Assembly: GCA_036788095.1 (NCBI GenBank) | Contig: DAIQOA010000001.1 | Location: forward strand, 3,948-67,947 | From: a bacterium | GTDB taxonomy: Bacteria; Zhuqueibacterota; Zhuqueibacteria; Residuimicrobiales; Residuimicrobiaceae | DNA: 64,000 bases | Direction: 5' to 3' | Shown here: positions 4,903 to 42,167 of the stretch, in pieces | How positions within the stretch are numbered: position 1 is the stretch's first letter | How the letters are laid out: each line of letters starts with the position of its first letter | Made by a program: the position numbers and the translations under genes | Notes under the pieces: model-generated | The model's database searches: none | What the model was told of the DNA's origin: nothing | The model's input: only the letters and a program-made list of their open reading frames with translations

Positions 4903-5092
4903 TGTGAGGCCCTGACTGGTTGTGAGCGAAAAAGGATTTAGCAAATGTAGGAATATTTGCGGGAAAAATAAACAACTATGTACAGCGGGCGCCCGGGGAT
5001 GGAGCGAATAGCGTTCTGTTGGTCAACAGCCATGATGTTGTCGGCGAAAAGCGTCTGGTTGAATCATGGGAGTAATGCCCGCGCCGTCTGGT

Positions 5093-5749
5093 TTAGCCCT
5101 GGTCGTGCGCCACGATGCGCGCCTCGGTTAAAAAAAACACCTCTTCAGCGATGTTGGTGGCATGGTCAGCCAATCGCTCGAGCTGTCTGGTCAGCACGAT
5201 CAGGTGCGCACACGGCTCAATGTCGTCGGTGCCGGCTTTCATCCGCTCGACGAGAAATTTAAAAATACTTTTGTTCAAACCGTCCACCGCATCGTCCTGA
5301 CGCCGCACTTGCAGCGCTTTTTGTTTGTCCAGCTCGGTGAACGACGCGATGGCTGTCTTTAGCATCACCTGCGCTTGTTTGGCCATGTCGATCACCTGCG
5401 ATTCTTGGACCAGATCGTGGCGGTCCGCGGTCTTGCGTGTACGGTTGACGATGTTGACGGCGATGTCGCCGCATCGTTCCAACTGGGCGCTGATCTTGAG
5501 CGCCGTGATGATGGTGCGCAAGTCGATGGCCACGGGTTGAAACAGAGCGAACAGGTTTTCACACTGAGCCAGAATCAGGTTTTCATAGGCGTCCGTCTGT
5601 TTGTCGCGCTCCTTGACCACGCGGCACAGCTCCACATCGGCTTTTTCCAGCGCTTCAATGGCCATGCCCACCTGACCGTCCACCAGCTCCACCATCTGCT
5701 GCAAGGACGTTTTCAGGCTGTCCATTTCCTGAGTAAAATGATTCTGCAT
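5093..5749 (-). CDS. phoU: phosphate-transport system regulatory protein PhoU
   Basis: 218 aa. Two PhoU repeats ('DVELCRVVKERDKQTDAYENLI', 'IVLTRQLERLADHATNIAEEVFF'). Transcribed divergently from pstS. Confidence 0.9.
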   Translation of the reverse strand: MQNHFTQEMDSLKTSLQQMVELVDGQVGMAIEALEKADVELCRVVKERDKQTDAYENLILAQCENLFALFQPVAIDLRTIITALKISAQLERCGDIAVNIVNRTRKTADRHDLVQESQVIDMAKQAQVMLKTAIASFTELDKQKALQVRRQDDAVDGLNKSIFKFLVERMKAGTDDIEPCAHLIVLTRQLERLADHATNIAEEVFFLTEARIVAHDQG

Positions 5750-5778
5750 ATTCGATGAACCTCAGAGTTGTATATAGT

Positions 5779-5807
5779 AATATACTCATGTTTTTCCGTG
5801 AAATCAA
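5779..5807 (-). promoter_or_regulatory. putative sigma70-type promoter of phoU (-35 TTGATT, 17-nt spacer, -10 TATATT on the minus strand)
   Basis: Plus strand shows aatcaa (5802-5807) and aatata (5779-5784), which on the minus strand read TTGATT-N17-TATATT. The -10 element ends ~30 nt upstream of the phoU ATG at 5749. Confidence 0.4.
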
Positions 5808-5950
5808 CGAAAACGAGGGGGCGATGCCGCAACCGCCGTCGCCACGCCTGGTTTCGGTCGTTGGTTGGTCCAGCCGGGTTAGCTAACGGTTCTAACTCTA
5901 TTTATTTTATGCTGATTACGCCGGCGGCCAATGCGACCGCGCGCGAGTTC

Positions 5951-17650: not shown

Positions 17651-19156
17651 ATGAATTCTAAAAACCCATACATCGTCGTTTTATTCAGCCTGCTGCTGAT
17701 CATGGGATGCGGTCTCAAGGATCCGTTCGGCGATCGCCGTGATTCGAATCCCGTGGGCAATCAGCCGCCGCAAACCCATCTGTTTCTTCAGGTGTCGCAA
17801 ACGCAGATCAGCGTGCACGACACCCTGACGGATGGAACCATTGTGACCAAGACCTACACCGCGGGATTGGATACAACGCCGAGCCGGCAGATCGTACACT
17901 GGTGGGGCGATGATCCGGACGGCACGGTGGCCGGGTATTACTATCAATGGGATTATCAAGCGTCGCCCGTATACACCACTCTGGAGTATGATACTTTTTA
18001 TGTGCCCATCCGCAGCCACTACGACGAGTTCACCTTCAAGGTCTGGGCGGTGGACGATCAGGGATTGCAGGATCCGACGCCGGCGGAGCTGCGCTTCCCG
18101 GTCTACAACACGCCGCCGGAGATCTCCTTTCGTCTGAACACCAATCCGAGCATCACCGGAAATCCGAATGTAACCGCCTACACCTTTCCCACACGGACTT
18201 TTATCTGGGACGCCTCGGACGACGATGGCCGGCAGACCATCACCCATATTTTGTATGCGCTGGACGACACCAGCTCCTGGCGCTCTTTGCCGGGGGATGT
18301 GGATCAGATCACTCTGCGAGATATCCAGCCGGGCGAGCACCGTTTCTTTGTCAAAGCGCAGGATATCTCCGGCGCCACCAGCCGTACGATTTCATTCCCC
18401 GATCCCGCGGACGCTTCGGTGCCGTTGCACTGGGTGGTCAAACCGGTGCAGGGCGGAGTGCTGCTGGTCAACGATTTTGCCCAGGATCAGCGGCTGTATC
18501 AGGTGCAGAGTTTCTACACGGAGATTTTAAGCGAATTGTTGGGACCGGAAGGCTATTCGGTCTGGGAGATCGGTTCAGAGACGACGCCGCTGATTAATTC
18601 CCAGAACGCTTTGCCCTATTCATCCCTCGACATCGAGGCCAATCTGGCGTATTTTGAAAAGGTCATCTGGTTCGCGCATCTTGGTCGGCCGCATTTGAGC
18701 GCCGCCGGACTGAGCATCACCCGCTTTGCCGGCCGCGGCGGCAAGATTTTCATCAGCAACGGCAATGAAGAGACGCCGGACACCACCTGGATGTTCACCA
18801 GCCTGGACTCGGTATACCGGTTGAATCCCGGCGGCCGTCTGCTGGCCGGCGTCAATGTGCTCGCCAGCTTTGGCAGCGCCGATGACCGTCAGTTGGATCT
18901 GAAACTGGAAAAAATGATCGGCAACCGTGTGTCCGCCCTGGTGCCCGGTCCCGGCGCCGAGGTGGTATGGCGAATGGAGCCGGACAGTTCCGCCACCATC
19001 ACAGTGCCCTATAAAGGATCGCCCGCGGTGGCGTTGCGCTATCCCATCGGTTCGGGCAAGTGCATCTATTTCTCCCTGCCGTTGCATCTGTGCGATGGCC
19101 ATAAAAATATGACCGGCTTTTTCCGCTACCTTCTTTTTGAAGAATTTAATCGTTAA
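17651..19156 (+). CDS. hypothetical lipoprotein (Ig-like N-terminal repeats + α/β C-terminal domain), first gene of the TBDR cluster
   Basis: Lipobox 'LLLIMGCG'. Two similar β-sandwich segments ('WAVDDQGLQDPTPAELRFP', 'FVKAQDISGATSRTISFP'). C-terminal 'GGVLLVNDFAQD...KIFISNGNE' looks GATase1/ThuA-like. Confidence 0.55.
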   Translation: MNSKNPYIVVLFSLLLIMGCGLKDPFGDRRDSNPVGNQPPQTHLFLQVSQTQISVHDTLTDGTIVTKTYTAGLDTTPSRQIVHWWGDDPDGTVAGYYYQWDYQASPVYTTLEYDTFYVPIRSHYDEFTFKVWAVDDQGLQDPTPAELRFPVYNTPPEISFRLNTNPSITGNPNVTAYTFPTRTFIWDASDDDGRQTITHILYALDDTSSWRSLPGDVDQITLRDIQPGEHRFFVKAQDISGATSRTISFPDPADASVPLHWVVKPVQGGVLLVNDFAQDQRLYQVQSFYTEILSELLGPEGYSVWEIGSETTPLINSQNALPYSSLDIEANLAYFEKVIWFAHLGRPHLSAAGLSITRFAGRGGKIFISNGNEETPDTTWMFTSLDSVYRLNPGGRLLAGVNVLASFGSADDRQLDLKLEKMIGNRVSALVPGPGAEVVWRMEPDSSATITVPYKGSPAVALRYPIGSGKCIYFSLPLHLCDGHKNMTGFFRYLLFEEFNR

Positions 19157-19160
19157 GCGA

Positions 19161-21884
19161 ATGAAGATTTTTAACAAATTTATCTTGTTACTTTTGTGTG
19201 CGACCGCTGCCTGGGCCCAATCGTCGCTCATTCGAGGCCGGATTACCGACAAGCGCACCAAGGAGACGTTGCCCGGCGTCAACGTCTCGGTCCCTGGAAC
19301 CTACAAAGGCGCGGTGACCGATATCGAAGGCGTCTACGAGATCCGCGACCTGGCGCCCGGCGACTATGATCTCAAGGCGTCCCTTATCGGCTACACCGTC
19401 CAGGTGCGCACCGGCGTTCATGTGGAGCAGGGAAAAACCACGCAGATTGATTTCAGTCTCGAGGCCACGGTCCTGGCCCTGGGCCAATCCGTCGAGGTCA
19501 TCGGTAAAAAACCGCTGTTCGAGACCGACATCACCGCCTCGCAACAGCACATCTCCTCCGAAGAGATCGAACAAAAGGTGGTGGAGAGCGTCACCGATCT
19601 GGTGGGCGAACAGCTCGGCGTGGTGGTTCAGGACAACAAGATCCATATCCGCGGCGGCCGCGCCGATGAGAGCCTGTACATCATCGACGGTCAGTCCATC
19701 AAGGACCCGCTGTCCGGCTATTCCAACACCCTGTACGTCAACGCTGCCGCAGTCAAGGATCTCAAGGTCATCACCGGTGGCTTTGACGCCGAGTACGGCC
19801 AGGCCATGTCCGGCGTGGTGGACATCGAGACCAAAGAGGGCGACGACCATTATTCCGGCGGTGTGAGCGTCAAATCGGACAACCTCGCCCACGGCCTGTT
19901 CCCCTCGTTCAACACCGACATCGTGCAGCTCACCCTCGGTGGTCCTGAGCCCCTCACCCACCGTCTGCTGCCCGCCATCGGGCTGCGTTTCCCCGGCAAA
20001 CTTAATTTTTTTCTCAGCGGGTACGGCAACATCAGCGACACCTATCTGCCGCATGCGGACCGGCTCTCTCCGGCCAAAGCCTCGTATGAAAAATTCGCTT
20101 CGCGCCAGGAGAATGATTGGCATCTCATGGGCAAACTCTCCTGGGAGATCAAGCCGGGCCGCAAAGTATCGCTCTCCCATGATCGCTCTTTGAACATCAA
20201 CCAGGGGTATTTTACCTCTCTGGCGACCGACATCGGCGGCTTTCCCTATGACTATTCCAAAATGCTGGATCACTATAACACCCTGACCAAAGAAGCCAAC
20301 CTGACCACGTTGCAGTGGATCCACACGCTCAACAGCCGCACTTTTTACCGCATGACCCTGTCCCGCTTTTTCACCAGCATCCACTCCGCGGTGCAGAACA
20401 AGCACTGGAGCGCCTATCAGGAAGGGCTGGACCTGCTGCCCATTCTCTACATTCCCGATTCAGAGGGCAACGTGAAAACCCGGTACGGCGACGGCTTTTT
20501 TGACACCGGCGATGCCGAAGGGTGGTACGACTATTTCAGCGACAATTGGACGATCAAAACCGATCTCACCACACAGCCGAACGACAAACACTCGATCAAA
20601 GCGGGCGTTGAGGCGCGCTATACGGACATGCAAGTGGTGGATATCAACGCGCCCTGGTACGGCGAGAGCGGCCTGGGGCGCAACCATGATTATTTTCGCG
20701 TCTACCCCAACGATGGCGCTCTTTATCTGCAGGATCGCATCACCTACGACGGCATGATCGTCAACATCGGCCTGCGCTACGACTATTGGTTTCCCGGCAA
20801 ATTTGTCGACGACGCCATCAAGGATTCCAACACTGTGACCATCACCGATGCGGCGCGTGTGAAGTATCAGGACGAAACCTTCGAGCTCTGGGGCTTGCGC
20901 GGCAAAAGTCATCTCAGCCCGCGATTGGGCATCAGCCATCCGGTCACCGACAACGACGTGCTCTATCTCCATTATGGCCATTTTTCCCAACAGCCCAAAG
21001 GCCAGTATGTGTATGCCAAGCTGCGCTCCACCTCGGAAGCGACATATCAGCTTTTCGGCAATCCCAACCTCAAGCCCACGACCACCGTGGCCTACGAGTT
21101 GGGACTCAAACACCGGTTCAACGCCAACCAGACTCTGGAGATCAAGGCCTACTACAAGGATATGTTTGATTATCCTACCGCGGCCACGGTGCGCAAATTC
21201 AGCCCCCGTTACGGCAACATCAGCTTTCTCATGTATGTGAATATGGATTACGCGCGGGCCCGCGGGATCGAGATGCGCTTTCGCCGGCGTTACAGCCAGT
21301 TCCTCAGCGGCAATGTCGATTTCACCTATGCCCTGGCCACGGGCAAGAGCTCAACGCCCAACACCAATCTGCTGGTCGCCGCGGGCAAGGTGTCGGAAAA
21401 GCCGTTGGGAGAGAGCCGGCTCAGTTGGGATCGCCCCTACCGCCTGTCGACGGATCTCTATTTCGATATGCCGGAGAAAGCCAACATTCGTTTGGCCGGG
21501 GTGCGGTTGCCGGAAAAATGGGGATTGACCCTGCGCTGGGAATACGAGTCAGGCAAACGCTACCGCCGCATCATCGATGTGGCCGATAACGTCTATGAAA
21601 AGGATGAATACGGCTCCCTGTCCGACCCCTGGATGCGCCTGGATCTCAAATGGTACAAAGAGTTCGAGTTGTTCAAGACGCATCTGGCCCTGCTGGTCGA
21701 AGCGGAGAACGTGTTCAACGCCAAGGTGCCGCGCATCATCAATCCAGTGACCGGCCGGCCGTATCAGCCGGGCGATGTGATCCCGGTCAGCTGGTATGAT
21801 GATCCTGATGATTTGCCGGCCACCAATCCGGCGCGCTACGACTGGCCGCGCCGGGTGATGACCGGATTGGAGATAAGGTTCTGA
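19161..21884 (+). CDS. TonB-dependent outer-membrane receptor with N-terminal carboxypeptidase-D-regulatory-like domain (SusC/RagA-type architecture)
   Basis: Signal peptide MKIFNKFILLLLCATAAWAQ (alternative start 19137). CarbopepD_reg 'IRGRITDKRTKETLPGVNVSV...TDIEGVYEI'. Plug 'LYIIDGQSI', followed by a long β-barrel ending in aromatic 'GLEIRF'. Confidence 0.8.
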   Translation: MKIFNKFILLLLCATAAWAQSSLIRGRITDKRTKETLPGVNVSVPGTYKGAVTDIEGVYEIRDLAPGDYDLKASLIGYTVQVRTGVHVEQGKTTQIDFSLEATVLALGQSVEVIGKKPLFETDITASQQHISSEEIEQKVVESVTDLVGEQLGVVVQDNKIHIRGGRADESLYIIDGQSIKDPLSGYSNTLYVNAAAVKDLKVITGGFDAEYGQAMSGVVDIETKEGDDHYSGGVSVKSDNLAHGLFPSFNTDIVQLTLGGPEPLTHRLLPAIGLRFPGKLNFFLSGYGNISDTYLPHADRLSPAKASYEKFASRQENDWHLMGKLSWEIKPGRKVSLSHDRSLNINQGYFTSLATDIGGFPYDYSKMLDHYNTLTKEANLTTLQWIHTLNSRTFYRMTLSRFFTSIHSAVQNKHWSAYQEGLDLLPILYIPDSEGNVKTRYGDGFFDTGDAEGWYDYFSDNWTIKTDLTTQPNDKHSIKAGVEARYTDMQVVDINAPWYGESGLGRNHDYFRVYPNDGALYLQDRITYDGMIVNIGLRYDYWFPGKFVDDAIKDSNTVTITDAARVKYQDETFELWGLRGKSHLSPRLGISHPVTDNDVLYLHYGHFSQQPKGQYVYAKLRSTSEATYQLFGNPNLKPTTTVAYELGLKHRFNANQTLEIKAYYKDMFDYPTAATVRKFSPRYGNISFLMYVNMDYARARGIEMRFRRRYSQFLSGNVDFTYALATGKSSTPNTNLLVAAGKVSEKPLGESRLSWDRPYRLSTDLYFDMPEKANIRLAGVRLPEKWGLTLRWEYESGKRYRRIIDVADNVYEKDEYGSLSDPWMRLDLKWYKEFELFKTHLALLVEAENVFNAKVPRIINPVTGRPYQPGDVIPVSWYDDPDDLPATNPARYDWPRRVMTGLEIRF

Positions 21885-21889
21885 TCACG

Positions 21890-22912
21890 ATGGCAGGAAG
21901 GAATCGATATAGCCTGAACACGGCGCTGCGTTACGTATTTTTGTTGACCGCCGTGCTGTTTTTAAGCCGGCCGGCGGACGGGCAAGGGCTTTTACCCCGG
22001 CTGGGTGAGCAACGCGCCGGCACCGCCTCCCTGACGTTTCTCAAGATCGGCGTGGGCGCTCGAGCGGTCTCCATGGCCGGCGCCTATGTGGCCATGGCCA
22101 ACGACGCCTCCGCAACCTATTGGAATCCCGCCGGCCTGGTGCAGATCGGCCGTAACGAACTGGTCGTTTCGCACTCCGACTGGCTGGTGGATGTTGATTA
22201 CGAATATCTGGGCTATGTGCATCAAGTGACGCGGAATTTAAGCCTGGGCGCTTTTGCAGGCTATCTCCATTTTGCCGATATGCCGGTGACCACCGAGTAT
22301 CATCCTTACGGCAACGGCGATTATTTTTCTTATCACGACTGGGTGGCCGGGCTGAGCGCTTCGCTCAAAATGACAGACCGGTTTTCCTTCGGCGTGACCG
22401 CTAAATACGCGGCCGAGGAACTGGCCGGTCTGCGCATGGGCGGCCTGCTGCTGGACATGGGCACCTATTACTGGACCGGCTACAAAACCCTGCGCCTGGC
22501 CGCTGCCCTGCGCAATTTCGGCAACGACATGCGGCCGGCTGGAACCTATCTGCGCACAAAAACCAGCGGCGCTACGGTCACCTCCTATCAGGCGTTCTCG
22601 CCGCCGACGCTCTTTACTCTGGGCGCGGCTATGGACGTGTATCAGTCGGACGCCCATCGGGTCACCGCGACGGTGCAGATGAATCATCCCATGGACGATC
22701 AGGAAAATTTTCTCATGGGCGGCGAGTACCGGTTCCGCTCGCTCTTTGCCTTTCGCGGCGGCTATCGCGCCAGCTCGGGCGAGAATCACTGGACCTTTGG
22801 CGCCGGCGCCAAGTTCATCCTCAAGGGAGCGCATCTCAAGATCGATTATGCCTATGCGGATTACACCCATTTGACCATGACACAGCAATTCACCTTTGGA
22901 TTTGAATTTTAA
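21890..22912 (+). CDS. PorV/PorQ-family (T9SS-associated, FadL-like) outer-membrane β-barrel protein, co-transcribed with the TBDR
   Basis: Signal peptide, then the family hallmark 'GARAVSMAGAYVAMANDASATYWNPAGL'. 340 aa with alternating amphipathic β-strands and a terminal 'FTFGFEF'. Starts 6 nt after the TBDR stop. Confidence 0.6.
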   Translation: MAGRNRYSLNTALRYVFLLTAVLFLSRPADGQGLLPRLGEQRAGTASLTFLKIGVGARAVSMAGAYVAMANDASATYWNPAGLVQIGRNELVVSHSDWLVDVDYEYLGYVHQVTRNLSLGAFAGYLHFADMPVTTEYHPYGNGDYFSYHDWVAGLSASLKMTDRFSFGVTAKYAAEELAGLRMGGLLLDMGTYYWTGYKTLRLAAALRNFGNDMRPAGTYLRTKTSGATVTSYQAFSPPTLFTLGAAMDVYQSDAHRVTATVQMNHPMDDQENFLMGGEYRFRSLFAFRGGYRASSGENHWTFGAGAKFILKGAHLKIDYAYADYTHLTMTQQFTFGFEF

Positions 22913-24150
22913 TGAAGCGCACTGATTACATGGTCGTCGTCGCGCTGTTGACCACCCTGGGATGCAGCGAGTACAAGATGCCGCTGCCGAGTCCGGCCAC
23001 CGGCAGCCTGTCCTTCGGCGCCAATGACACCAGCTATGTGGAGCTCCAGCCGCAATGGGACGCCGCGTATCTGGGCGTGCCGCTGCAGGCGCCGGGGGAT
23101 TTGACCATCAGCGCCGACGGCACGCTCTATCTGGCGGATGAAGGGGCAGACCGGATTTACGCCCTGAGCAAAGCGGGCCGCATTCTTGGTGATTTCGGCC
23201 AGAATGCGCTGGACGCGGTAGCCAAGCCACGCGCGCTGGCCATGGACAGCAAGCTGAATCTGCTCATCGTCGACGGCACCCACACGCTGTATATCTGGAA
23301 TCAATTCTTGAATCGCATTCCCATCGATTCGGTGGCGGACTCCGCCATCTTTTTCGACCGGGAGAAAAACGAAACCGTTCAGTTGACCCTCGAGGAGTGG
23401 TCGCAGCGCGTCAGCGCAGGAGCCTCTTCGTTGATGCTGCGCCGTTATCTCTTTCGCAGCGATCCGGAACGCATCGCCGCCGCCCGCGGGATCTATCCGG
23501 CGTATCAGGACGAGGACGCGGCTGCGCAGTATAACGGCGTTGCCGCGGGCAAATACAGCGAAGAGACGGTCTACCTGACGGAATCCCACACCGATCGGAT
23601 TCTGCAACTGCTGCTGATGCCGAATCTGGCGTTTAAAGGAAAAGACCGGAGCGTGCTGTTCGGGTACAGGGCGGTGCTGCAAAAGACCGTGGCGGTTTTC
23701 GGCTCCGGATCAGGCACTGTGGATGATCCCTGGGCCATCACCACCGACAGCGATGAAAATCTATATTTCACCCAATTGGGCGGCAATTTTCGCGTGCAGA
23801 AATTGAGCGCCGCCACTTTTACGCCGCGCTATGTGCTCTATCAGCATGCGATCATGGATCTCGAGCGGTTCGTCGCGCCCTATGATATGGCGCTGGACGG
23901 ATCGAACCAAATTTTTGTCCTTGACGGCGCTACCGGCGCGGTGACCAAGTTCGCCAACTCGGGGAGCAAAGCCGGACAGATGCTCAGTCTGGGAAAAAAG
24001 GGGCTGGCTCTGGCTCGTTTTCAAGAGGGAAAAGGGCTGCTGGTCAGCGATCAGGTCGTCTATGTGGTCGAACGCGGCGCCCGGTGCATCCGCCGGTTTC
24101 AGTATTCCGTCTCGGAATCTGATCTTCCCTATGACGACAAAAAACCTTGA
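22912..24150 (+). CDS. NHL-repeat / six-bladed β-propeller lipoprotein
   Basis: Lipobox 'ALLTTLGCS'. NHL-like blades 'LYLADEGADRIYAL', 'LLIVDGTHTLYIW', 'IFVLDGATGAVTKF', 'VYVVERGARCIRRF'. Start overlaps the upstream stop. Confidence 0.6.
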   Translation: MKRTDYMVVVALLTTLGCSEYKMPLPSPATGSLSFGANDTSYVELQPQWDAAYLGVPLQAPGDLTISADGTLYLADEGADRIYALSKAGRILGDFGQNALDAVAKPRALAMDSKLNLLIVDGTHTLYIWNQFLNRIPIDSVADSAIFFDREKNETVQLTLEEWSQRVSAGASSLMLRRYLFRSDPERIAAARGIYPAYQDEDAAAQYNGVAAGKYSEETVYLTESHTDRILQLLLMPNLAFKGKDRSVLFGYRAVLQKTVAVFGSGSGTVDDPWAITTDSDENLYFTQLGGNFRVQKLSAATFTPRYVLYQHAIMDLERFVAPYDMALDGSNQIFVLDGATGAVTKFANSGSKAGQMLSLGKKGLALARFQEGKGLLVSDQVVYVVERGARCIRRFQYSVSESDLPYDDKKP

Positions 24151-24267
24151 TGGTCAAGGCAGGAAAGGAGGCCTGGAGATCACATAAAAGAGTACGCACA
24201 AAGAAGAAAGGGGCGGTTGGGCAGCCGTTCGTTTTTCGGATAACCTTATTTTTGGAGGAGTGGAGTT

Positions 24268-26982
24268 ATGAAAAAAATTTTCAAGGTGGCGGGAGCGCTG
24301 TGCCTGTTGTTTATATTCGCCGCCGGCTCGTACGCACAGACAGGCAAAATCGTCGGTCGCGTGATCGACGCCACTATGAAGCAGGAGATGATCGGGGCTA
24401 ACGTGCAGGTAACCGGTACCATGCTGGGTGCGGTGACGGATGTGCGCGGGAATTACACGATCACAGGCGTGCCGGCCGGCACTCATTCATTAAAAGTTTC
24501 CTTTGTCGGTTACCAGACGGCTGAAGGTTCAGCCGCGGTCACCGCGGGAAAAACGACGGTCCTAGATTTTGCGTTGACGCCGACGATGATCATCACCAAG
24601 GGCATCAGCGTTTTTGCCGACCGCGCCAAGGAGCGCGAGACCCCGGTGGCGTTCACCAACATTCAAAAACAGGAGATGGTGCAAAGACTGGGTTCCCGCG
24701 ACATTCCGCTGGTGCTCACCACGGCGCCGAGCGTGTACGCCACCCCTTCGGGCGGCGGCGCGGGAGATGCCCGCATGAACATCCGCGGTTTTGATCAGCG
24801 TAACGTAGCCATCATGATCAACGGCGTGCCGATCAATGACATGGAGAACGGCTGGGTGTACTGGTCCAACTGGGACGGCGTTTCCGACGCCACCTCCTCG
24901 ATCCAGCTGCAGCGTGGCCTCAGTGCCGTCAATCTGGCCACCCCCTCCATCGGCGGTACGATGAACATCATCACTGATCCCAGCGCACAGTCCGCCGGCA
25001 TCATCGCACGGCAGGAGATCGGCAGCGGCGGTTTTCTCAAGACCACGGTCAGCGCCGCCAGCGGGCTGCTGAACGGCAAGTTCTCCGTCAATGGAACAGT
25101 GGTGCGTAAAACCGGCGACGGCATTGTCGACGCGACCTATACCGACGCCTGGGCGTATTATTTGGGAGCGGCCTACAACCTCAACACCAACAACCGCATC
25201 GAGCTGTATGCCATGGGCGCTCCGCAGATGCACGGCCAGAATATCAACAAGCAGAACATCGGCGTTTTCAACAAAGAATTCGCTCTGGGCCTCGAGGGGT
25301 ACGATCCGGCGGCGGCCGACAAATATGTCGAGTCCTCCTCGGGCGTCAAGTACAATCAGAACTGGAACACCGTCAGCTCGTCCTACGCCGGCAAACAGTA
25401 CTGGAATGGAAAAACGCACGATCGCCAGACCTCGGACGTCCTCTACGAACGGGAAAACTATTATCACAAGCCGGTCGTGAACCTGAACTGGTACTCCAAG
25501 CTCAGTGAAAAAGCGGGCCTCTATTCGGTGGCCTATTACGCCGGCGGCCGCGGTGGCGGCTCGGGCACTTACGGATCAGTGACCAGCGATAAGAGCCAAT
25601 TCCCCAATCCCAGAGATTGGAACGCGACCATCGCCAAGAACCAGGCCAGCACCACCGGCGCTTTGGGAGTGCTGCGCAACAGCACCAACAATCAGGATGC
25701 TTTCGGCGCCATCTCCAAACTCAACTATGCGTTCAGCAAAAATCTCAAGAGCGCGATCGGCGTCGATTGGCGTACCGCATCCATCGATCATTACCGTGAA
25801 ATCCGCGATATGCTCGGCGGCGCCTATTATGTCGACCTCAAGGCCGACAAGGTCAGTCCGCGCAGCGACTTTTGGACTGCTGAACAGACTCAGCGCAAGC
25901 TGGGCGACCGGATCGATTACGATTTCACCAACAGCGTCAACTGGATGGGCTGCTTTGGTCAAGTAGAGTATACGCTGAACAAAATCAGCACCTACGCCAT
26001 GGCCGGCTGGTCGACCATCAAGTACGACCACACCAACCATTTCAAAAAAGACGAGGCCGGCAAAGAGCTCTATTTGGAGAGCGACTGGATCGGCGGCGCG
26101 CAGGTTAAAGGCGGCGCCAGCTATCGCGCCACGGAGAGCATGGATATCTACGCCAACATCGGTCATGTTTCCAAGGTGCCGATTTTTGACAACGTCATCA
26201 GCGACGTCACCTCATCTCTGGCCGCGGCGCCGGTGAATGAAAAATTCTTTTCCATGGAAGCGGGCGTCAATATGCGCCTGCTGACCAATCAACTGGTCGG
26301 CAAGGTGAACATCTATCGCACCACCTGGATGGACCGCGCAAAATCCTATTCCATCATCGATGCCAACGGCGACGAGTCCATCGTTTTTGTCACCGGCATG
26401 GATCAGTTACATCAGGGCGTTGAGGTGGAGCTCGCTTACCAGCCGGTCAAACAGGCCCGGCTGGATGGAACGGTCAGCGTCGGCGACTGGACCAACACCA
26501 GCGACGTCAGCGGCTATTATAAGGATTACTCCGGCGGCGTAGAGACCGACAAGAGCTACAATTTCTACGTGGACGGCCTCAAAGTCGGCGATCAGCCGCA
26601 AAAGATGCTAGCCCTCAGCGCCAGCCTCTTTCCGCTGAACGGCATGACCCTGGAAATTTCGGCCCGTCACTATCGCGATCACTTTTCCTCCTGGGATCCC
26701 TTTGGCCGCTCCAACGCGGCCGATCGCACTCAGAGCTGGAGAGCCCCGAACTATACGCTCCTTGACCTGCATGCCGCCTACACGCTGCCGGTTCAGGTCG
26801 GCAGGGCCAAAATGCAGGTGTTCGCCCACTGTTTCAACCTGCTGGATGAGCTTTACATCCAGGACGCGGTGGACAACAGCAGCTACAGCTCTTTTGGTCC
26901 CAAGACGCATGCGGCGGATGACGCCGAGGTCTGGATGGGCCTGCCGCGCAATTTCAATCTGGGCCTTCAGGTCAGCTACTAG
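24268..26982 (+). CDS. TonB-dependent outer-membrane receptor with CarbopepD_reg N-domain (second copy)
   Basis: Strong GGAGG RBS. Signal peptide 'MKKIFKVAGALCLLFIFAAGSYAQ'. 'GKIVGRVIDATMKQEMIGANVQVTG...TDVRGNYTITGV', plug 'IMINGVPIND', C-terminal 'NLGLQVSY'. Confidence 0.8.
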   Translation: MKKIFKVAGALCLLFIFAAGSYAQTGKIVGRVIDATMKQEMIGANVQVTGTMLGAVTDVRGNYTITGVPAGTHSLKVSFVGYQTAEGSAAVTAGKTTVLDFALTPTMIITKGISVFADRAKERETPVAFTNIQKQEMVQRLGSRDIPLVLTTAPSVYATPSGGGAGDARMNIRGFDQRNVAIMINGVPINDMENGWVYWSNWDGVSDATSSIQLQRGLSAVNLATPSIGGTMNIITDPSAQSAGIIARQEIGSGGFLKTTVSAASGLLNGKFSVNGTVVRKTGDGIVDATYTDAWAYYLGAAYNLNTNNRIELYAMGAPQMHGQNINKQNIGVFNKEFALGLEGYDPAAADKYVESSSGVKYNQNWNTVSSSYAGKQYWNGKTHDRQTSDVLYERENYYHKPVVNLNWYSKLSEKAGLYSVAYYAGGRGGGSGTYGSVTSDKSQFPNPRDWNATIAKNQASTTGALGVLRNSTNNQDAFGAISKLNYAFSKNLKSAIGVDWRTASIDHYREIRDMLGGAYYVDLKADKVSPRSDFWTAEQTQRKLGDRIDYDFTNSVNWMGCFGQVEYTLNKISTYAMAGWSTIKYDHTNHFKKDEAGKELYLESDWIGGAQVKGGASYRATESMDIYANIGHVSKVPIFDNVISDVTSSLAAAPVNEKFFSMEAGVNMRLLTNQLVGKVNIYRTTWMDRAKSYSIIDANGDESIVFVTGMDQLHQGVEVELAYQPVKQARLDGTVSVGDWTNTSDVSGYYKDYSGGVETDKSYNFYVDGLKVGDQPQKMLALSASLFPLNGMTLEISARHYRDHFSSWDPFGRSNAADRTQSWRAPNYTLLDLHAAYTLPVQVGRAKMQVFAHCFNLLDELYIQDAVDNSSYSSFGPKTHAADDAEVWMGLPRNFNLGLQVSY

Positions 26983-26996
26983 GTTTTTGTTTCTGC

Positions 26997-27027
26997 AAGC
27001 CCCCAGCCACGGGGGCTTTTTTTTTCT
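26997..27027 (+). terminator. rho-independent terminator after the second TBDR
   Basis: AAGCCCCCagccacGGGGGCTT followed by TTTTTTTTT. Confidence 0.6.
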
Positions 27028-27100: not shown

Positions 27101-27129
27101 TTGACATTCACCGCAAATCGTGATAACTT
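27101..27129 (+). promoter_or_regulatory. putative promoter of the ogt-nudix-ssb-like operon (-35 TTGACA, 17 nt, -10 TAACTT)
   Basis: TTGACA at 27101-27106, a 17-nt spacer, and TAACTT at 27124-27129, ~30 nt upstream of the ogt ATG. Confidence 0.35.
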
Positions 27130-27161
27130 TTTATAATTTATGCGGGGAAAAGGAGAGAGGA

Positions 27162-27668
27162 ATGGCGAAACAGTTATCCTACTGCCTTTATGCCTGGGAC
27201 CCGGCCAATCTGATGTTGGTCGCCTCTGAGCAGGGTTTGTTCCGGATCGAATTCGTCCGCCCGGGCGAAGAGGACCGGTTCCTCACCGCTTTGCCGCCGG
27301 CGGTTCATTTGGTCAAGGACGAGCGTGCTTTCGACAAGGTGCGGACGCAGCTGGATATCTATTTTTCCGGCAAGCCGGTAAAATGGCAAATGGCGCTGGA
27401 TGTATCGTCCGGCACGGATTTTCAGCAAGTGGTGTGGTCGGCCCTGCGCCGGATTCCCTATGGGAAGACCATCACCTATGGACAACTGGCCCAGAGCATC
27501 GGCAAGCCCGGCGCCAGCCGTGCGGTCGGTACGGCCAACGCCGCCAATCCTCTCCCGGTCATTATCCCCTGTCATCGCGTGGTGGCCGGCAGCGGCCGCT
27601 TGGGCGGATTCAGCGGCGGCCTGCACATCAAACAGGCGCTGTTGCGGTTGGAGGGGGTTCTGCTGTAA
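27162..27668 (+). CDS. ogt: methylated-DNA--protein-cysteine S-methyltransferase (O6-alkylguanine-DNA alkyltransferase)
   Basis: Start MAKQLSY with AAGGAGAGAGG RBS. Active site 'PCHRVV'. 'TYGQLAQSIGKPGASRAVGTANAANP' is the HTH/asparagine-hinge region. Confidence 0.85.
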   Translation: MAKQLSYCLYAWDPANLMLVASEQGLFRIEFVRPGEEDRFLTALPPAVHLVKDERAFDKVRTQLDIYFSGKPVKWQMALDVSSGTDFQQVVWSALRRIPYGKTITYGQLAQSIGKPGASRAVGTANAANPLPVIIPCHRVVAGSGRLGGFSGGLHIKQALLRLEGVLL

Positions 27669-28429
27669 TGGCGGTGTATCGCACTCTGGCCAGAGGAAGT
27701 TGGCGCAGCGACCAAGTACGCATGGAGTGGCGTGCGGAATTTCATGCCCTGCCGGAGGTTCTGCAGCCTGAAGTCGAACGCCTGTGGCGGGAGAAGGAAA
27801 AGCAGGGTCACTTTAACGGCCATATGGCCCGGCTGGATGGGTACGAGATGCAAAACAGCTGTCTGTGCTTGCGTCTGTCCACCGGCGATTATCGAACATT
27901 GATGTATTCAAACGCCTTTACGGAACAGCTGTTGCGCGATTGGTCCGCTCAGGCCCTGTCCTGCGCTCTGGGCATCAGCGCTCTGGTGCGCAGCCGCGAC
28001 GGCCGGGTGGCGCTGATCCGGCGCAGCGACACGGTCGGCGAATATCCGGGGCACCTCGATGTGTTCGGCGGCCACATCGATGAGACGCTGCGGGGGAATG
28101 AACACGCCGCTTTTTTAGCCATGCGGCAAGAGCTGGAGGAAGAAGCGGCGCTGAAAAGCGAAGAATACGATTTGCAGTGCTTTGGCCTGATCGAGGCGCT
28201 GGACCATCGCAAGCCGGAATTGCTATTTCTCGCCGACTGTCGGCTGACGGCGGATGAGATCGCGGCGCGAGTGCGTGAGGCGGTCGATCGCCACGAGTTG
28301 CAGCAGCTGCTGTTTTTTCCCGATCAGGGCAAGGCCCTCGAGCGGGTGCTGGCGGTTGAAAGGATGATCAGTCCGTCCGCGGTGGGATGTGTGGAGGAAT
28401 ATATCAAAGCAGAGCGAGGACAAAGATGA
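27668..28429 (+). CDS. NUDIX hydrolase, translationally coupled to ogt (TAATG overlap)
   Basis: Nudix box 'GGHIDETLRGNEHAAFLAMRQELEEEAAL' (GX5EX7REUXEEXGU-like). Start at 27668 overlaps the ogt stop. The upstream part of ORF 27383.. is an alternative frame of ogt. Confidence 0.7.
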   Translation: MAVYRTLARGSWRSDQVRMEWRAEFHALPEVLQPEVERLWREKEKQGHFNGHMARLDGYEMQNSCLCLRLSTGDYRTLMYSNAFTEQLLRDWSAQALSCALGISALVRSRDGRVALIRRSDTVGEYPGHLDVFGGHIDETLRGNEHAAFLAMRQELEEEAALKSEEYDLQCFGLIEALDHRKPELLFLADCRLTADEIAARVREAVDRHELQQLLFFPDQGKALERVLAVERMISPSAVGCVEEYIKAERGQR

Positions 28430-28510
28430 TGGGCGGAGAAAAGTTTCCTCATTCGAGAAAGATAAGCCAAAAAACAGACCTCATCAATATTAATAAAACG
28501 TGATCAGGCC

Positions 28511-29011
28511 ATGAAAGAAAAACACAAACATCATCACAGAAAGCAGCATCGGCCGGCGGTGGAGCCCCTGCAGGTCGATCCCAACAAATCCTATGATTTC
28601 CCCAATGTCAACCGGGTGGTGGTGGCGGGAATGCTGATGCAGGACCCGCCGCTGCGCTGGACCTCGCGCGGCGTGCCGGTGACCAACTTTGTCATCTGCA
28701 CCGAGCCCGAAGCGGAAGCCGGCGCACTGGAGGGCATGGAGCGGGAACATTGCTACATCAGCGTTGTCGTCTGGGCTCAGCAGGCGGTGCAATGCAACAA
28801 ATATTTGAAAAGAGGCAACAGCGTGCTGATCATCGGCGAACTGCAGTCCATGCCCAACAGCGCGCCGGAGAAAGTCTATTATCCCATTCAGATCAACGCC
28901 CAGTGGATTCAGTATCTGGAAAAGGGCCTGGTGACCGCCATCGATCCGAGCTATGAGAACCAGGGCAACGGGATTCTGGAAACCTCGGAGAACACCACCA
29001 CCGGCGCCTAG
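28511..29011 (+). CDS. SSB-family OB-fold protein (single-stranded DNA-binding-like) with His-rich N-terminus and no acidic C-terminal tip
   Basis: 'NRVVVAGMLMQDPPLRWTSRGVPVTNFVICTE' and 'YISVVVWAQQAVQCNKYLKRGNSVLIIGELQS' align with the SSB β1-β3 and L45 regions (E. coli '[31 protein letters not shown]', '[31 protein letters not shown]'). The N-terminus is MKEKHKHHHRKQHR and there is no DDDIPF tail. Confidence 0.65.
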   Translation: MKEKHKHHHRKQHRPAVEPLQVDPNKSYDFPNVNRVVVAGMLMQDPPLRWTSRGVPVTNFVICTEPEAEAGALEGMEREHCYISVVVWAQQAVQCNKYLKRGNSVLIIGELQSMPNSAPEKVYYPIQINAQWIQYLEKGLVTAIDPSYENQGNGILETSENTTTGA

Positions 29012-29024
29012 TGCGAATCCCCAC

Positions 29025-29071
29025 GAGCTGTCCTTCGTAATCGCTGCAACAGGGCAGGCTCTTTTTTTTCA
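29025..29071 (+). terminator. possible rho-independent terminator after the ssb-like gene
   Basis: GAGCTGTCC...GGGCAGGCTC imperfect 9-bp stem (one bulge, G·U pairs) followed by TTTTTTTT (29064-29071). Confidence 0.35.
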
Positions 29072-29115: not shown

Positions 29116-31728
29116 TCAATACCCCAGCACGCTGCCGGCGCCGCCGCGTTTTTCCAGCTTGATATCCCGCAGAGTGGGCGACTTGACGCTGAGGCGAAAA
29201 TAGATCCGCTTGCTTATTCCTGACGGCACCCAATCCACCTGCGCCTCCCAGCAATGCAAATCCCGATAAAACGCGAACCGATGATAGGCGATCTGCTGTT
29301 TTTCCAGATCATAATGCGCGCTGTAGTTGATGCGCCAGTTCTTGGTCAGACTTATTTCCGCGCCCGAGATATCCAGATAGTATCGTTTCACGGCACTCGC
29401 CGGATTTGATTTGTCCAGAAAAAAATTAAACGTCATGTTCAAGCGCCAGGGGATGTTCAGCCCTTGATACACCCCTTCATCATAAAACCGGTTATTGCCG
29501 CGCCGGGAGCTCTCTTCCAGAACCGACAGATCCTTCGGACGCAGAGGCTCCTCCGGGTTTTCATAGTTTTCGTCGTATCCCTGCAGGGTTTCGGGCCGCT
29601 CGGCGCCGGCAGAGCCCTTGCCCTCCAATCGCAGGGAGAAATTCAGGTTCAGGGAGGTGAAGCGCAGATAATTCCACGGCTGCCAGGGTGAATCCTCCAA
29701 TAGATAACGGTTGACGCGTTGCCGGGCTTGGTGATCCCAGCCGTAGAAAGAGTGGCCGGTGCCGGCGGAGAGGCTGAAATTGCGCGCCGGATTCGCCTGC
29801 CAGGTGGTGCGCAGATCGGACAAGCGGTATTGCGTGGCTTTGAAATTGTATCCGGTGCTGAAATCCATGGTGAACAGATCGATTTTTTTCTCTTTTTCCG
29901 CCACCCCTTTTTTCATCTGAAACAGGTTGCGCACGCTGAGGCTGACCATCTGCGAGCCGTAGGCAGAGGTGCCGCGGAAGCGGTCGCGCTTGACCGTCTC
30001 ACCCTTTGCGTCGGTCACTGTCTGAAAATAGCCCCAGCCTGAAGTGGAGAAATCCGGTACATAGTTGAACGAGAGCGATGGGGTGACCACATGGCGGATC
30101 ATCTGGATATCGCCGATGCCCGGAGCCAGCACGCCGTAGATCTTGGTGGAGGCCGAGGCGCCGTAGCTGAAAGTGTGGCGGGCGGCAAACCCGGACTTTT
30201 CTCTGCTTTCAATCTGACCGGTCTCCTGGTTCAGTTCGTACTCGTTGGTGCGATCGAACCAGTCCTCCGACAGGCTCAACGATTGGTTGAGCGACAGCAT
30301 GCCGAAATATTTTTTCGGACTGGTCAGCGACAGATCCAGGTCGTGGTTGAGCTGGCGATCGGTTTCGCTCTGTTTTGAAAAAAGCTCGCCGCCGGTCTGC
30401 AGATATTCCCGGGTGGTGCTGTAGAAATTGGAGCCGTAGGAATAATAAAAAGAGTGGTACCATTTTTCACTGCGGCGACGGCCCTTGCCCGCTCTGGGAT
30501 TAAAAAGCTGGCTTTGACTCTTGCGGAAGGTCAGCTGCGGCAGCGTGGTGGTGGTGACATCGTCCTCGAGATCGCGGACTTGTGAGGCGTTGACGCTCAG
30601 ACTGAGCTTGTGCTGCGGCCAGGATTTAGAAAAGGTGGCGTTGGAGCGCAACTCGCGCGTCAACCGCGTCGACAGGTTGGTGGACAGATCCTGGTAAAAA
30701 CTTTTATCGCTGACAAAATAGCCGTTGGCGCTGAAACGGGTGTTGGGGTCGAACTCTTGGCTGTGGCGTACGGTCAAATCCCAGCGCCGTTCTTTTTCCG
30801 CATCGCCAAAGTTTTTTCTGGTGAGAGAGCCGTTGATGCTGCCGTTCAACAGGTAACGAACCGCATAGTTGAGGCCTCCGTCGACCAGCCAGCCGGATTT
30901 CTCGAAAAAATCGACGGTGGCGCGGGCATCCCAGTAATGGCTGGCCGCCCAATAGTAGCCCAGGCCGCGCAGATAGCGACCTTCACGGGTGCTTTCGCCG
31001 TAGCGGGGTATGATCAGCCCCGAGTGCCGGCCGGATTGGGTGGGAAAAAAAGCGAACGGCAGCGCGGCGACCGGAATGTGGCCGAGAAACAGGACAATGG
31101 GTTTGGCGATCACCCGGTCGTTGACGAGCATTTTCAACCGCCGGGCGCTAAAGTGGAAATGGGGGTTGGAATCCAGATCGCAGGTGGTAAAGGAGGCGTT
31201 GGACACGTTAAAGGTTTTTTTCGCCACCATCTTGATCTGCTCGCCCACATATTGGCCGTCTTCCATCCGGGTGCGGCCGCGGACCACCACGCCCTTGTCG
31301 GTTTTATAGTTAAAGATCATTTTGACGCCGGTCATCTGCGTACCGCCCTGGATCAAAACCGGATCGCCCTGGCTGCGGATGACCTGCGTCGAATCCGGGG
31401 AGCCGGCGGTTTTTTCCCATACCGTGTCCGGCACTCCTTCCGCGGTCACCAGATTGTCGTTGAAATCGATGCGAATCTGCGCCGCCCGCAGGGTCATATC
31501 CTTGTAGCTGACCACGGCGTTGCCGCGGAAATAGCTGGTGCGTTCCCTGACGTAATTGTCGATTTCTATCGCATCGTATTTGATCGAGGTGTCGATCTCG
31601 GAGGTCTTGAGCTTGGGCGATACCGCTGCGCGGCTGCTGTCGACACGGCTGGTGTCCGCAGCAGAGGCGTAGACCGCACTGCAGCCCACCAGGATCCACT
31701 GGAATGATTTTAAAAGATGGCTTCTCAC
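29116..31728 (-). CDS. lptD: LptD/OstA-family outer-membrane protein (LPS-assembly-protein-like, large FCB-type)
   Basis: OstA-like N-domain 'YDAIEIDNYVRERTSYFRGNAVVSYKDMTLRAAQIRIDFNDNLVTAEG'. Long β-rich C-terminal region. The start is assigned to GTG 31728 (V/MRSHLLKSFQWILVGCSAVYASA signal peptide); the ORF caller extends to 31917 through a basic, non-signal-like segment. Confidence 0.65.
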   Translation of the reverse strand: MRSHLLKSFQWILVGCSAVYASAADTSRVDSSRAAVSPKLKTSEIDTSIKYDAIEIDNYVRERTSYFRGNAVVSYKDMTLRAAQIRIDFNDNLVTAEGVPDTVWEKTAGSPDSTQVIRSQGDPVLIQGGTQMTGVKMIFNYKTDKGVVVRGRTRMEDGQYVGEQIKMVAKKTFNVSNASFTTCDLDSNPHFHFSARRLKMLVNDRVIAKPIVLFLGHIPVAALPFAFFPTQSGRHSGLIIPRYGESTREGRYLRGLGYYWAASHYWDARATVDFFEKSGWLVDGGLNYAVRYLLNGSINGSLTRKNFGDAEKERRWDLTVRHSQEFDPNTRFSANGYFVSDKSFYQDLSTNLSTRLTRELRSNATFSKSWPQHKLSLSVNASQVRDLEDDVTTTTLPQLTFRKSQSQLFNPRAGKGRRRSEKWYHSFYYSYGSNFYSTTREYLQTGGELFSKQSETDRQLNHDLDLSLTSPKKYFGMLSLNQSLSLSEDWFDRTNEYELNQETGQIESREKSGFAARHTFSYGASASTKIYGVLAPGIGDIQMIRHVVTPSLSFNYVPDFSTSGWGYFQTVTDAKGETVKRDRFRGTSAYGSQMVSLSVRNLFQMKKGVAEKEKKIDLFTMDFSTGYNFKATQYRLSDLRTTWQANPARNFSLSAGTGHSFYGWDHQARQRVNRYLLEDSPWQPWNYLRFTSLNLNFSLRLEGKGSAGAERPETLQGYDENYENPEEPLRPKDLSVLEESSRRGNNRFYDEGVYQGLNIPWRLNMTFNFFLDKSNPASAVKRYYLDISGAEISLTKNWRINYSAHYDLEKQQIAYHRFAFYRDLHCWEAQVDWVPSGISKRIYFRLSVKSPTLRDIKLEKRGGAGSVLGY

Positions 31729-31753
31729 GGGAATGATAGCGGCGCCTTGACGT

Positions 31754-33073
31754 TCATCGTTTTTTCTTCGGCCACAGCATCTGCAGACGTTCTTTGATTT
31801 TTTTTTCGATGCCGTTTTCCGTGGGATGGTAAAAAATCTGTTCTTGGGCCTCTTTCGGCAGATACGCCTGGTCGACGAATCCGCCGAAATCGTGCGGATA
31901 CCGGTAACCGTCGGCATATCCCATGTTCTTCATCAGGGTTGTCGGCGCATTGCGCAGATGCAACGGCACCTGTTCCGGCGTGTGGGCCCGTACCTGGTTC
32001 AGCGCCGCTTCCACCGCCAGATAAGAGGCGTTGCTTTTAGGCGCGCAGGCCAGATAAACCGTGGCCTGGGCCAGGGTGATGCGCGCCTCGGGCATGCCCA
32101 GATAATGGACCGCGGTGAACGCGCTCGTCGCCACCATCAACGCATGCGGGTCCGCGTTGCCCACATCCTCCGAAGCGAGGATCAGCAGACGGCGGGCGAT
32201 GAACAGCGGATCTTCGCCGCCGTCCAGCATCACCGCCAGCCAGTAGACCGCAGCATCCGGATCAGAGCCGCGAACGCTCTTGATGAAAGCGGAGATGGTG
32301 TCGTAATGGTACTCGCCCTTTTTATCGTACAGCCGGCTGCGCCGCTGCAGCGCTTCTTCGATCGACCCGCGGTCGATGGTGCGCACGCCCTGTTCGTCCG
32401 GCTGCACCAATTGTGCGGCCAACTCCAGACCGTTGAGCATCACCCGCGCATCCCCGCCGGCAAGCTTTAACAGAATCTGCCGCGCTTCCTCCTCGATCCG
32501 CACGTTCCAATCCTGCAGCCGGCTGTCGCCGGCCAGGGCACGATCGAAGATCAGCCCCAAATCCTCTACGGACAACGGCTCCAGCTTGTAGACGCGGCAG
32601 CGGGAGAGCAACGCAGAGATCACCTCAAAGCTGGGATTTTCGGTGGTGGCACCGATGAGGACAATGGTACCGTCTTCGACCGAATGCAACAGGGCGTCCT
32701 GTTGCGACTTGTTGAAGCGATGAATCTCGTCGATGAACAGAATGGTGCGCGAGCCGGCCTGGCGGCCCTGCTGCGCTTCGGCGATCACCTTACGAAGGTC
32801 AGCCACGCCGGAAGTGACGGCGCTCAGGCTGAAATAGTGTGAACGCGTTTCATGGGCGATCAGTCTGGCCAGAGTGGTTTTGCCGGTGCCGGGCGGCCCC
32901 CAGAGGATCATTGAAACCAGTTGATCGTCCTCGATGGCGCGGCGCAGCGCTTTGCCCGAACCCAAAAGATGCCCCTGACCCACCAGCTCATCCAGCCGCT
33001 GCGGTCTGACGCGATCGGCAAGCGGACGATAGGACTCGACCGGTTTGCCGGATTCTGTATGTGTGTTGGCCAT
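31754..33073 (-). CDS. rarA: replication-associated recombination protein A (MgsA/RarA AAA+ ATPase)
   Basis: Walker A 'GPPGTGKTT', Walker B '[10 protein letters not shown]', sensor/arginine-finger region, and the C-terminal MgsA helical domain '[15 protein letters not shown]'. Confidence 0.9.
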
Positions 33074-42091: not shown

Positions 42092-42120
42092 TTGACTTTT
42101 ATGCATTAAAACGGTATATT
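42092..42120 (+). promoter_or_regulatory. putative promoter of secDF (-35 TTGACT, 17 nt, -10 TATATT)
   Basis: TTGACT at 42092-42097, a 17-nt spacer, and TATATT at 42115-42120, ~45 nt upstream of the secD ATG with an AGGAGG RBS. Confidence 0.45.
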
Positions 42121-42167
42121 TATAAGCTTTTTTTGAAATTATCACATTCCCAGGAGGTCTCACTTCG

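Follow-up and report, generated by a model that had tools for sequence, protein, structure and literature searches.

Why should a gene for O6-alkylguanine-DNA alkyltransferase (ogt) be packed together with a Nudix gene and a gene for a protein of the single-stranded DNA-binding protein (SSB) fold? The question is posed by a 64,000-nucleotide (nt) stretch of contig DAIQOA010000001.1 (assembly GCA_036788095.1), hereafter the window, from a bacterium of the Zhuqueibacterota (KSB1). Three open reading frames (ORFs) lie packed on its + strand between 27162 and 29011: ogt (27162-27668), a gene of 253 amino acids (aa) whose product is identified below as a two-domain Nudix pyrophosphatase related to human NUDT22 (27668-28429), and a gene for a 166-aa SSB-fold paralog (28511-29011). 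An earlier note on this DNA, written from the sequence alone, had named these three genes, and both ORF coordinates and domain matches bear it out; the overlap that it described between the ogt stop and the Nudix start is likewise seen in the sequence, where TAA and ATG have one base in common (TAATG). Our analysis points to the triad as an undescribed genome-maintenance unit, with a chemistry that is probably other than the sanitation of alkylated nucleotides proposed in that note. The association of the three genes is robust; the mechanism is one that we infer.

Related loci were collected by two routes: members of the SSB family were placed on their contigs, and one genome per species was scanned for the NUDT22-like gene using an alignment of 20 sequences and a single peptide pattern, DVFGGHI[DE]. 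Since the scan used one peptide pattern, NUDT22-like genes without it were missed. The NUDT22-like and SSB-like genes were adjacent in ∼23 independent lineages (29 loci, some of them near-duplicates), and the complete order ogt, NUDT22-like, SSB-like was found in ∼20 (26 loci, again with some near-duplicates), which answers the note's call for a check of co-occurrence in other genomes. At every locus examined the NUDT22-like gene lay directly upstream of the SSB-subfamily member, and divergent members of the SSB family, when looked up from the SSB side, were found in the triad every time. The genomes concerned span 39–60% GC, and identities went down to 33% (NUDT22-like), 41% (Ogt) and 50% (SSB-like).

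Within the triad the ORFs usually overlap by 1–4 nt (14–26 nt in two lineages) or abut, so that one tightly packed unit is seen in many lineages, as had been expected. The NUDT22-like and SSB-like genes overlap or abut in most other lineages, unlike in the window, where an 81-nt spacer (28430-28510, +) separates them; a terminator scan called none there, and the GC content is even and host-like throughout the operon region. Both flanks vary while the unit is kept. The 5′ neighbor of ogt may be a TonB receptor, PduL or an NHL-repeat gene, and the 3′ neighbor of the SSB-like gene may be LptD_2, RtcB with archease, a PLD-family gene, a heparinase gene or a restriction-modification pair. This comparative evidence places the arrangement beyond chance.

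The ogt product (168 aa) matched Pfam DNA_binding_1 (PF01035; 9.3e-36) over profile positions 1-81 of 81, together with Methyltransf_1N (PF02870; 4.1e-06) and TIGR00589 (3.2e-34). Residues 136-139 are PCHR, with Cys137 as the acceptor, a motif that sets the protein apart from the alkyltransferase-like ATL proteins and that is kept in 29/29 syntenic Ogt copies. The protein is accordingly predicted from its sequence to be a catalytically intact, active alkyltransferase. It resembles Escherichia coli Ogt, the C-terminal domain of Ada and MGMT in both Pfam domains, in the PCHR cysteine and in its typical length. Unlike Ada, it is without an Ada-type regulatory domain, and its neighborhood holds no Ada, AlkA or AlkB partner; unlike E. 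coli ogt and ada, the window gene appears translationally coupled to a NUDT22-like gene.

Pfam and NCBIfam alone failed to identify the middle gene (at 21.6 bits the Pfam NUDIX match was just above the 21.1 cut-off, and NCBIfam gave no match for the 253-aa protein), and a comparison of a family profile with the PDB and structure prediction were therefore needed. The profile, built from an alignment of 36 homologs, matched human NUDT22 (5lor/5lf9) with an E value of 1.1e-21 over profile positions 17-253 of 257; the next match was NUDT17 (E 0.006), in the Nudix core only. The AlphaFold 2 (AF2) model had a predicted local distance difference test score (pLDDT) of 96, and its best Foldseek matches were all NUDT22 (E 3e-19, TMq 0.83), with NUDT17 next (TM 0.43). 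Many Nudix structures matched the C-terminal domain, indicating that the Nudix alpha/beta/alpha fold is present. Human NUDT22 is identical at 18/25 invariant and 12/18 near-invariant bacterial positions, including both glutamates of the modified Nudix box. This box, GGHIDETLRGNEHAAFLAMRQELEEEAAL, occupies residues 134-162 and departs from the canonical GX5EX7REUXEEXGU in its G-to-E spacing, in an R that is unconserved in the family and in a final G replaced by A; E155 and E159 are its only invariant residues, one canonical-box glutamate having been lost in a subclade of the 36-homolog alignment. The NUDT22 architecture, in which a partially conserved Nudix domain comes after a unique N-terminal one, extends over the full length. 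On this sequence and model evidence, the middle gene is a full-length NUDT22 homolog and not a Nudix gene of the MutT/MTH1 type.

Human NUDT22 (PDB 5LF9, 5LOR, 5LOU) shares with the window protein the two-domain layout and the modified box with both glutamates; unlike it, the bacterial proteins are ∼250 aa long, are 21–23% identical to it and do not have the human loop insertions. The human enzyme, the sole characterized family member, is a uridine diphosphate (UDP)-glucose/galactose pyrophosphatase that splits UDP-glucose, giving uridine monophosphate (UMP) together with glucose-1-phosphate, is induced by DNA damage via p53, and upon loss causes slowed replication forks and replication stress (PMC10101856). 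It has also been described as an outlier of the Nudix family, without a conventional Nudix box and inactive on the 52 substrates screened (PMC5688067). Both are tied to genome maintenance, the human protein in this way and the bacterial gene through its neighbors ogt, uvrA or ssb; nothing in eukaryotes corresponds to an operon shared with Ogt and an SSB paralog.

The third protein matched Pfam SSB (PF00436; 2.2e-15) and TIGR00621 (55.5 against a cut-off of 53.95). The profile of its family matched the SSBs of Staphylococcus aureus and Bacillus subtilis in the PDB (1e-15 to 5e-14), and its AF2 model, with a core pLDDT above 90 and disordered termini, had Salinibacter ruber SSB as its best Foldseek match. 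The window protein consists of a 32-aa basic, His-rich N-terminal extension (N-terminus MKEKHKHHHRKQHR), an oligonucleotide-binding (OB) core at approximately residues 33-137 and a short, weakly acidic tail ending in ILETSENTTTGA, without a DDDIPF-type tip. Among the 120 homologs listed, all those with a named source were labelled KSB1 or Calditrichota, and the canonical tip ([DE][DE][DE][IL]PF) occurred in 0/120, the last residues being unconserved. The earlier note had claimed that an acidic SSB tail was absent; the canonical tip is indeed missing, but a tail is present that is short and acidic (in the 120 homologs a median of 24 aa with a median net charge of −5, unconserved in sequence). 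In the window it measures ∼30 aa and is not Gly/Pro-rich, and the long Gly/Pro/Gln-rich linker of bacterial SSBs was not found. The His-rich N-terminus to which the note drew attention is real in the window but confined, in its basic form, to the closest relatives; in the family the extension (median 27 aa) is mostly acidic.

The family carries the strongly conserved motifs GELQSMPN and AQWIQYLEKG. When the stacking aromatics were compared with E. coli SSB (alignment by eye), F60 was replaced by an invariant Trp, W54 was variable (Y, F or other), and W40 and W88 were absent. A published KEGG table of 44 KSB1 metagenome-assembled genomes (MAGs) gives 2–4 K03111 (ssb) genes in 33/44, including three in GCA_014728085.1, where the triad was confirmed (L048). 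Because most KSB1 genomes carry 2–4 ssb genes, the operon copy is one of several and is a paralog at the level of the phylum, as had been proposed. A second SSB was sought in the window and the related loci using approximate E. coli and B. subtilis SSB queries, and only the operon copy was found, the rest of the genome being outside the scope of that search. The nearest known parallel is B. subtilis SsbB (and, loosely, PriB): a single OB fold of the SSB family, an extra ssb copy and no partner-recruiting tip at the C-terminus. Unlike those proteins, the SSB-like gene stands outside a competence or primosome context, and its core is nearer to SsbA-type cores than to SsbB; unlike canonical SSBs, the family has the N-terminal extension and its distinctive invariant motifs. 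Identity with PriB itself was considered and rejected (TIGR04418, 22.1 bits against a cut-off of 72).

The NUDT22-like gene also occurs outside the triad. An exhaustive profile search indicated a family of modest size (239 cluster representatives at E ≤ 1e-30), and in a neighbor-joining tree of the proteins the ogt-linked genes fell into two separated clades and the uvrA-linked genes into a third. The former comprise the KSB1 clade, with ogt, NUDT22-like and SSB-like genes, and L040-L042 (58–64% GC), with ogt and the NUDT22-like gene, no SSB and, in L041 and L042, a purine-nucleoside-phosphorylase-family (PNP) gene before ogt. The latter, L038 and L039, show a second type of DNA-repair linkage for the family: a full-length uvrA on the same strand runs into the start of the NUDT22-like gene (2072-5762 in L038, overlap of 29 nt; 57-2115 in L039, overlap of 50 nt). 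Elsewhere the gene follows an enoyl-CoA hydratase gene (L028, L030, L031) or an aldehyde dehydrogenase gene and PduL (L035, L036, L045). The repeated DNA-repair neighbors support a role in genome maintenance for the NUDT22-like enzyme, and the link between the Nudix gene and DNA repair that had been suggested from the window alone is upheld by them.

Candidate signals for expression as one unit were found at both ends of the triad, where the earlier note had set a promoter (27101) and a terminator (∼29050); both the TTGACA element and a hairpin with a T tract are present. The promoter-like region (27101-27137, +) consists of TTGACA (27101-27106), a 17-nt spacer and TAACTTTT (27124-27131), with TATAAT (27132-27137) following directly, and a Shine-Dalgarno-like AAGGAG (27150-27155, +) lies 6 nt before the ogt ATG. 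A generic sigma-70 scan made no call at 27101; the site was recovered by inspection and by comparison with relatives, in which TTGnnn-N16-18-TAnnTTT was found just 5′ of ogt in 9/23 related loci from several lineages, compared with 1.9% of control windows drawn from the same loci. The motif is missing where a PduL gene abuts ogt, and in those genomes ogt is probably transcribed from farther upstream. A stricter pattern, TTGA-N18-20-TAnnTTT, matched 3 times in the 64 kb of the window, where 0.59 matches would be expected. Of the further matches, one (42092-42121, +) lies upstream of an ORF starting at 42168, and the other (28458-28487, −) is antisense within the spacer between the NUDT22-like and SSB-like genes, directed into the former. 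The −35 element is flanked by a 6-nt inverted repeat (CGATTT ... AAATCG), which was judged to be chance; it is missing from the homologous promoter of the relative L006.

In the gap that separates the SSB-like gene from the convergent LptD_2, RNA folding gave an intrinsic-terminator-like hairpin (GAGCTGTCCT ... AGGGCAGGCTC) followed by T8 (29025-29069, +). Its stem is imperfect (10 bp; 29025-29034 / 29051-29061), the T8 tract occupies 29062-29069, and the whole 81-nt stretch folds with an unexceptional energy (z = −0.5). A generic terminator scan made no call there because the loop is long. The element looks like a terminator. On the other side, the TonB-dependent receptor gene upstream (24268-26982) has its own hairpin terminator (26997-27018).

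Taken together, these results lead us to favor, with confidence slightly above even, a conserved and co-transcribed genome-maintenance operon of KSB1 and close allies that includes a pyrophosphatase of the UDP-sugar type. Transcription would start at the 27101 promoter, and translation of the second gene would be coupled to that of the first via TAATG. Ogt, as a suicide alkyltransferase, would take O6-alkylguanine and O4-alkylthymine adducts off DNA. The NUDT22-like enzyme, with a putative N-terminal nucleotide-recognition domain preceding its Nudix domain, is predicted to be a Mg2+-dependent pyrophosphatase that converts a UDP-sugar-type nucleoside-diphosphate-X to UMP and X-1-phosphate, while the SSB paralog is probably a binder of single-stranded nucleic acid that does not call in the usual SSB partners. 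On DNA damage the operon might then provide direct reversal of lesions, cover for exposed single-stranded DNA (ssDNA) and a quick supply of UMP (or removal of uridine-nucleotide derivatives); the UMP would serve repair and replication. This damage-response logic is suggested by analogy with human NUDT22, which is damage-induced and feeds pyrimidine salvage.

Several observations weigh against this explanation. The ogt gene has disappeared from the unit in three lineages in which the NUDT22-like and SSB-like ORFs still overlap; given this loss and the metabolic neighbors seen elsewhere, the function of the NUDT22-like enzyme need not be tied to alkylation repair. In the window itself the SSB-like gene is preceded by the 81-nt spacer and a weak ribosome-binding site. 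All triad genomes belong to one phylum-level group, and the conservation may for that reason be partly one of inherited gene order. The substrate assignment hangs, by analogy, on a single characterized eukaryotic homolog of 21–23% identity, and ssDNA binding is not assured, since two of the four classical stacking aromatics have, by inspection, been lost.

The chemistry of the earlier note, in which the Nudix enzyme would sanitize alkylated nucleotides (e.g. O6-methyl-dGTP) in parallel with Ogt while the SSB paralog serves the module, appears unlikely to us. The repeated linkage to ogt and uvrA in separate clades would fit it, and there is a eukaryotic precedent for a Nudix enzyme paired with an alkyltransferase against alkylation: MTH1 (NUDT1) hydrolyzes O6-methyl-dGTP and cooperates with MGMT, E. 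coli MutT being without the activity and no bacterial O6-methyl-dGTP hydrolase being known in that report (PMC6237811). However, MTH1 is a single-domain, MutT-type Nudix enzyme whereas the window protein is of the NUDT22 type, and among the human NUDIX enzymes of one panel, to which NUDT22 belonged, MTH1 alone had the activity (PMC6237811). NUDT22 was also inactive on the 52 panel substrates mentioned above (PMC5688067), and the 18/25 invariant bacterial residues that are shared, both Nudix-box glutamates among them, are shared with a UDP-glucose hydrolase. With a NUDT22 homolog in place of an MTH1-like protein, and human NUDT22 without O6-methyl-dGTP activity, sanitation of alkylated nucleotides by the Nudix protein is left unsupported. 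A different form of genome protection would have the NUDT22-like enzyme guard the genome instead of keeping house with UDP-sugars. It would work physically with its dedicated SSB, for example as the bacterial hydrolase of alkylated or otherwise damaged nucleotides (E. coli MutT being without that activity in the single study to examine it) or as a remover of nucleotide-sugar adducts or caps from single-stranded nucleic acid. On this reading, which we regard as improbable, the SSB paralog would direct the enzyme to exposed single strands, and the duplex would be repaired by Ogt. If true, it would constitute a new repair pathway and would suggest an ancestral role in DNA maintenance for the NUDT22 lineage.

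No link in the locus persists more than that between the NUDT22-like and SSB-like genes, which stay adjacent after the loss of ogt and often have overlapping ORFs. This could mean that the two proteins act on nucleic-acid ends instead of free nucleotides, e.g. in the removal of UDP-glucose or UDP-GlcNAc caps from RNA 5′ ends with the OB-fold protein contributing the single-strand binding, and that ogt is a frequent but dispensable passenger. NUDT22 has been suggested, without test, as a decapping enzyme for UDP-Glc-RNA, and bacteria make such caps (PMC11253889); the SSB-like protein lacks, by inspection, two canonical stacking positions as well as the partner-recruiting tip, and several loci have the RNA-repair genes for RtcB and archease downstream. 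Yet activity of NUDT22 on capped RNA stands as a proposal only, the OB core is closest to true ssDNA-binding SSBs, the ogt and uvrA links suggest DNA over RNA, and the RtcB gene is convergent and not universally present, so that we hold decapping to be a long shot. The single phylum-level group to which the triad genomes belong raises the further thought that gene order was simply inherited without shared function, among independent housekeeping or stress genes of which the SSB-like one would be a general second SSB; LptD_2 and RarA are likewise kept downstream in many loci with no obvious functional link, and the NUDT22-like gene is found in unrelated contexts elsewhere. This too seems unlikely when set against flanks that change repeatedly on both sides of an intact triad with overlapping ORFs, an SSB subfamily never found away from the NUDT22-like gene at the loci examined, and ogt or uvrA links that arise again in separate clades of the NUDT22-like family. 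A module for anti-phage defence or nucleotide signaling, with the NUDT22-like domain sensing or degrading a signal derived from a nucleotide, could be suspected from distant NUDT22-like domains fused to effector-type domains (SIR2, P0284; patatin, P0290) and from restriction-modification cassettes in or beside the operon in two lineages. We rejected it as highly improbable because PADLOC gave no match for any of the three window proteins at E ≤ 0.01 and the locus is vertically conserved; its fixed chromosomal position and host-like GC are also unlike those of mobile defence islands, and Ogt is a classical repair enzyme.

In the searchable literature we found no description of this operon or of bacterial NUDT22 homologs. 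Each part comes from a known family; judged from sequence, what appears new is a DNA-repair operon of unusual make-up, a subfamily of SSB and a prokaryotic branch of NUDT22. Human NUDT22 is an outlier among Nudix enzymes whose tie to DNA damage and replication stress has been recognized only recently, and a prokaryotic branch beside ogt, uvrA and an SSB paralog suggests that the connection to genome maintenance is old. The small bacterial proteins would be handy for testing that connection. The operon also offers a clear case of a specialized SSB paralog, tip-less and with an N-terminal extension, in a phylum without cultured members.

The surroundings of the operon yielded a number of additional observations. 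Convergent to it on the − strand lie LptD_2 (29116-31917) and the RarA/MgsA ATPase gene (31754-33073), a position kept in most KSB1 loci. The longest ORFs of these two genes overlap by 164 nt, and the LptD_2 start is therefore probably farther downstream. RarA binds the SSB tip in E. coli, which makes its place beside a tip-less SSB a curious one. In four loci (L029, L034, L048, L049) a convergent gene for the RNA ligase RtcB replaces LptD_2 downstream of the SSB-like gene, accompanied by archease in L029, L034 and L048. Upstream, the window holds a row of four genes (19137-26982) for a TonB-dependent receptor, a PorV-like protein, a 412-aa protein and a second TonB-dependent receptor, the last three of which precede the operon in L008 and L009 as well; the 412-aa protein had no Pfam match in the window, and its counterpart in L008 had a faint NHL match.

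A gene for a PduL-type phosphate propanoyltransferase stands directly before ogt (or, where ogt is missing, before the NUDT22-like gene) in L010, L012, L016, L035-L037, L045, L046 and L048, preceded by a CoA-acylating aldehyde dehydrogenase gene in L035, L045 and probably L036. Through these neighbors the unit may have a connection with reactive-aldehyde handling. Insertions were found at two points. In L015, a relative with proteins 83–95% identical, 1215 bp (4722-5936) are inserted in the spacer between the NUDT22-like and SSB-like genes, at the point corresponding to 28450/28451 of the window. Two ORFs, one of 196 aa and one of 228 aa that has a DPPW motif, lie in the insertion and are probably a restriction-modification pair. 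The 196-aa ORF begins with ATGGGCGGAGAAAAGTTTCC, which is also found in the window's spacer; because it is common to both, the 81-nt spacer may mark an insertion site or be the scar of a deletion. A second restriction-modification cassette beside the operon was seen in L006 (6621-8176), where the gap from the SSB-like gene to LptD_2 has gained genes for a BglII-type endonuclease and an N6/N4 methyltransferase.

Among distant family members, four fusion proteins were inspected (P0284, P0290, P0278, P0313). The SIR2 fusion (P0284, 893 aa), which matched the pAgo- and Thoeris-associated SIR2 models of PADLOC, and the patatin phospholipase fusion (P0290, 597 aa) resemble defence effectors. In NUDT22-like proteins of ∼450–510 aa, the N-terminal part had no Pfam match and looked, by eye, like a zinc ribbon with membrane segments; the idea that the ∼490-aa forms are fusions to Ogt was rejected, the N-terminal part being without a Pfam match. 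Finally, in L047 an ORF for a DarT-Macro fusion (2715-5477), with the domains of DarTG-type DNA ADP-ribosylation toxin-antitoxin systems, lies two genes before that of a 158-aa NUDT22-like protein.

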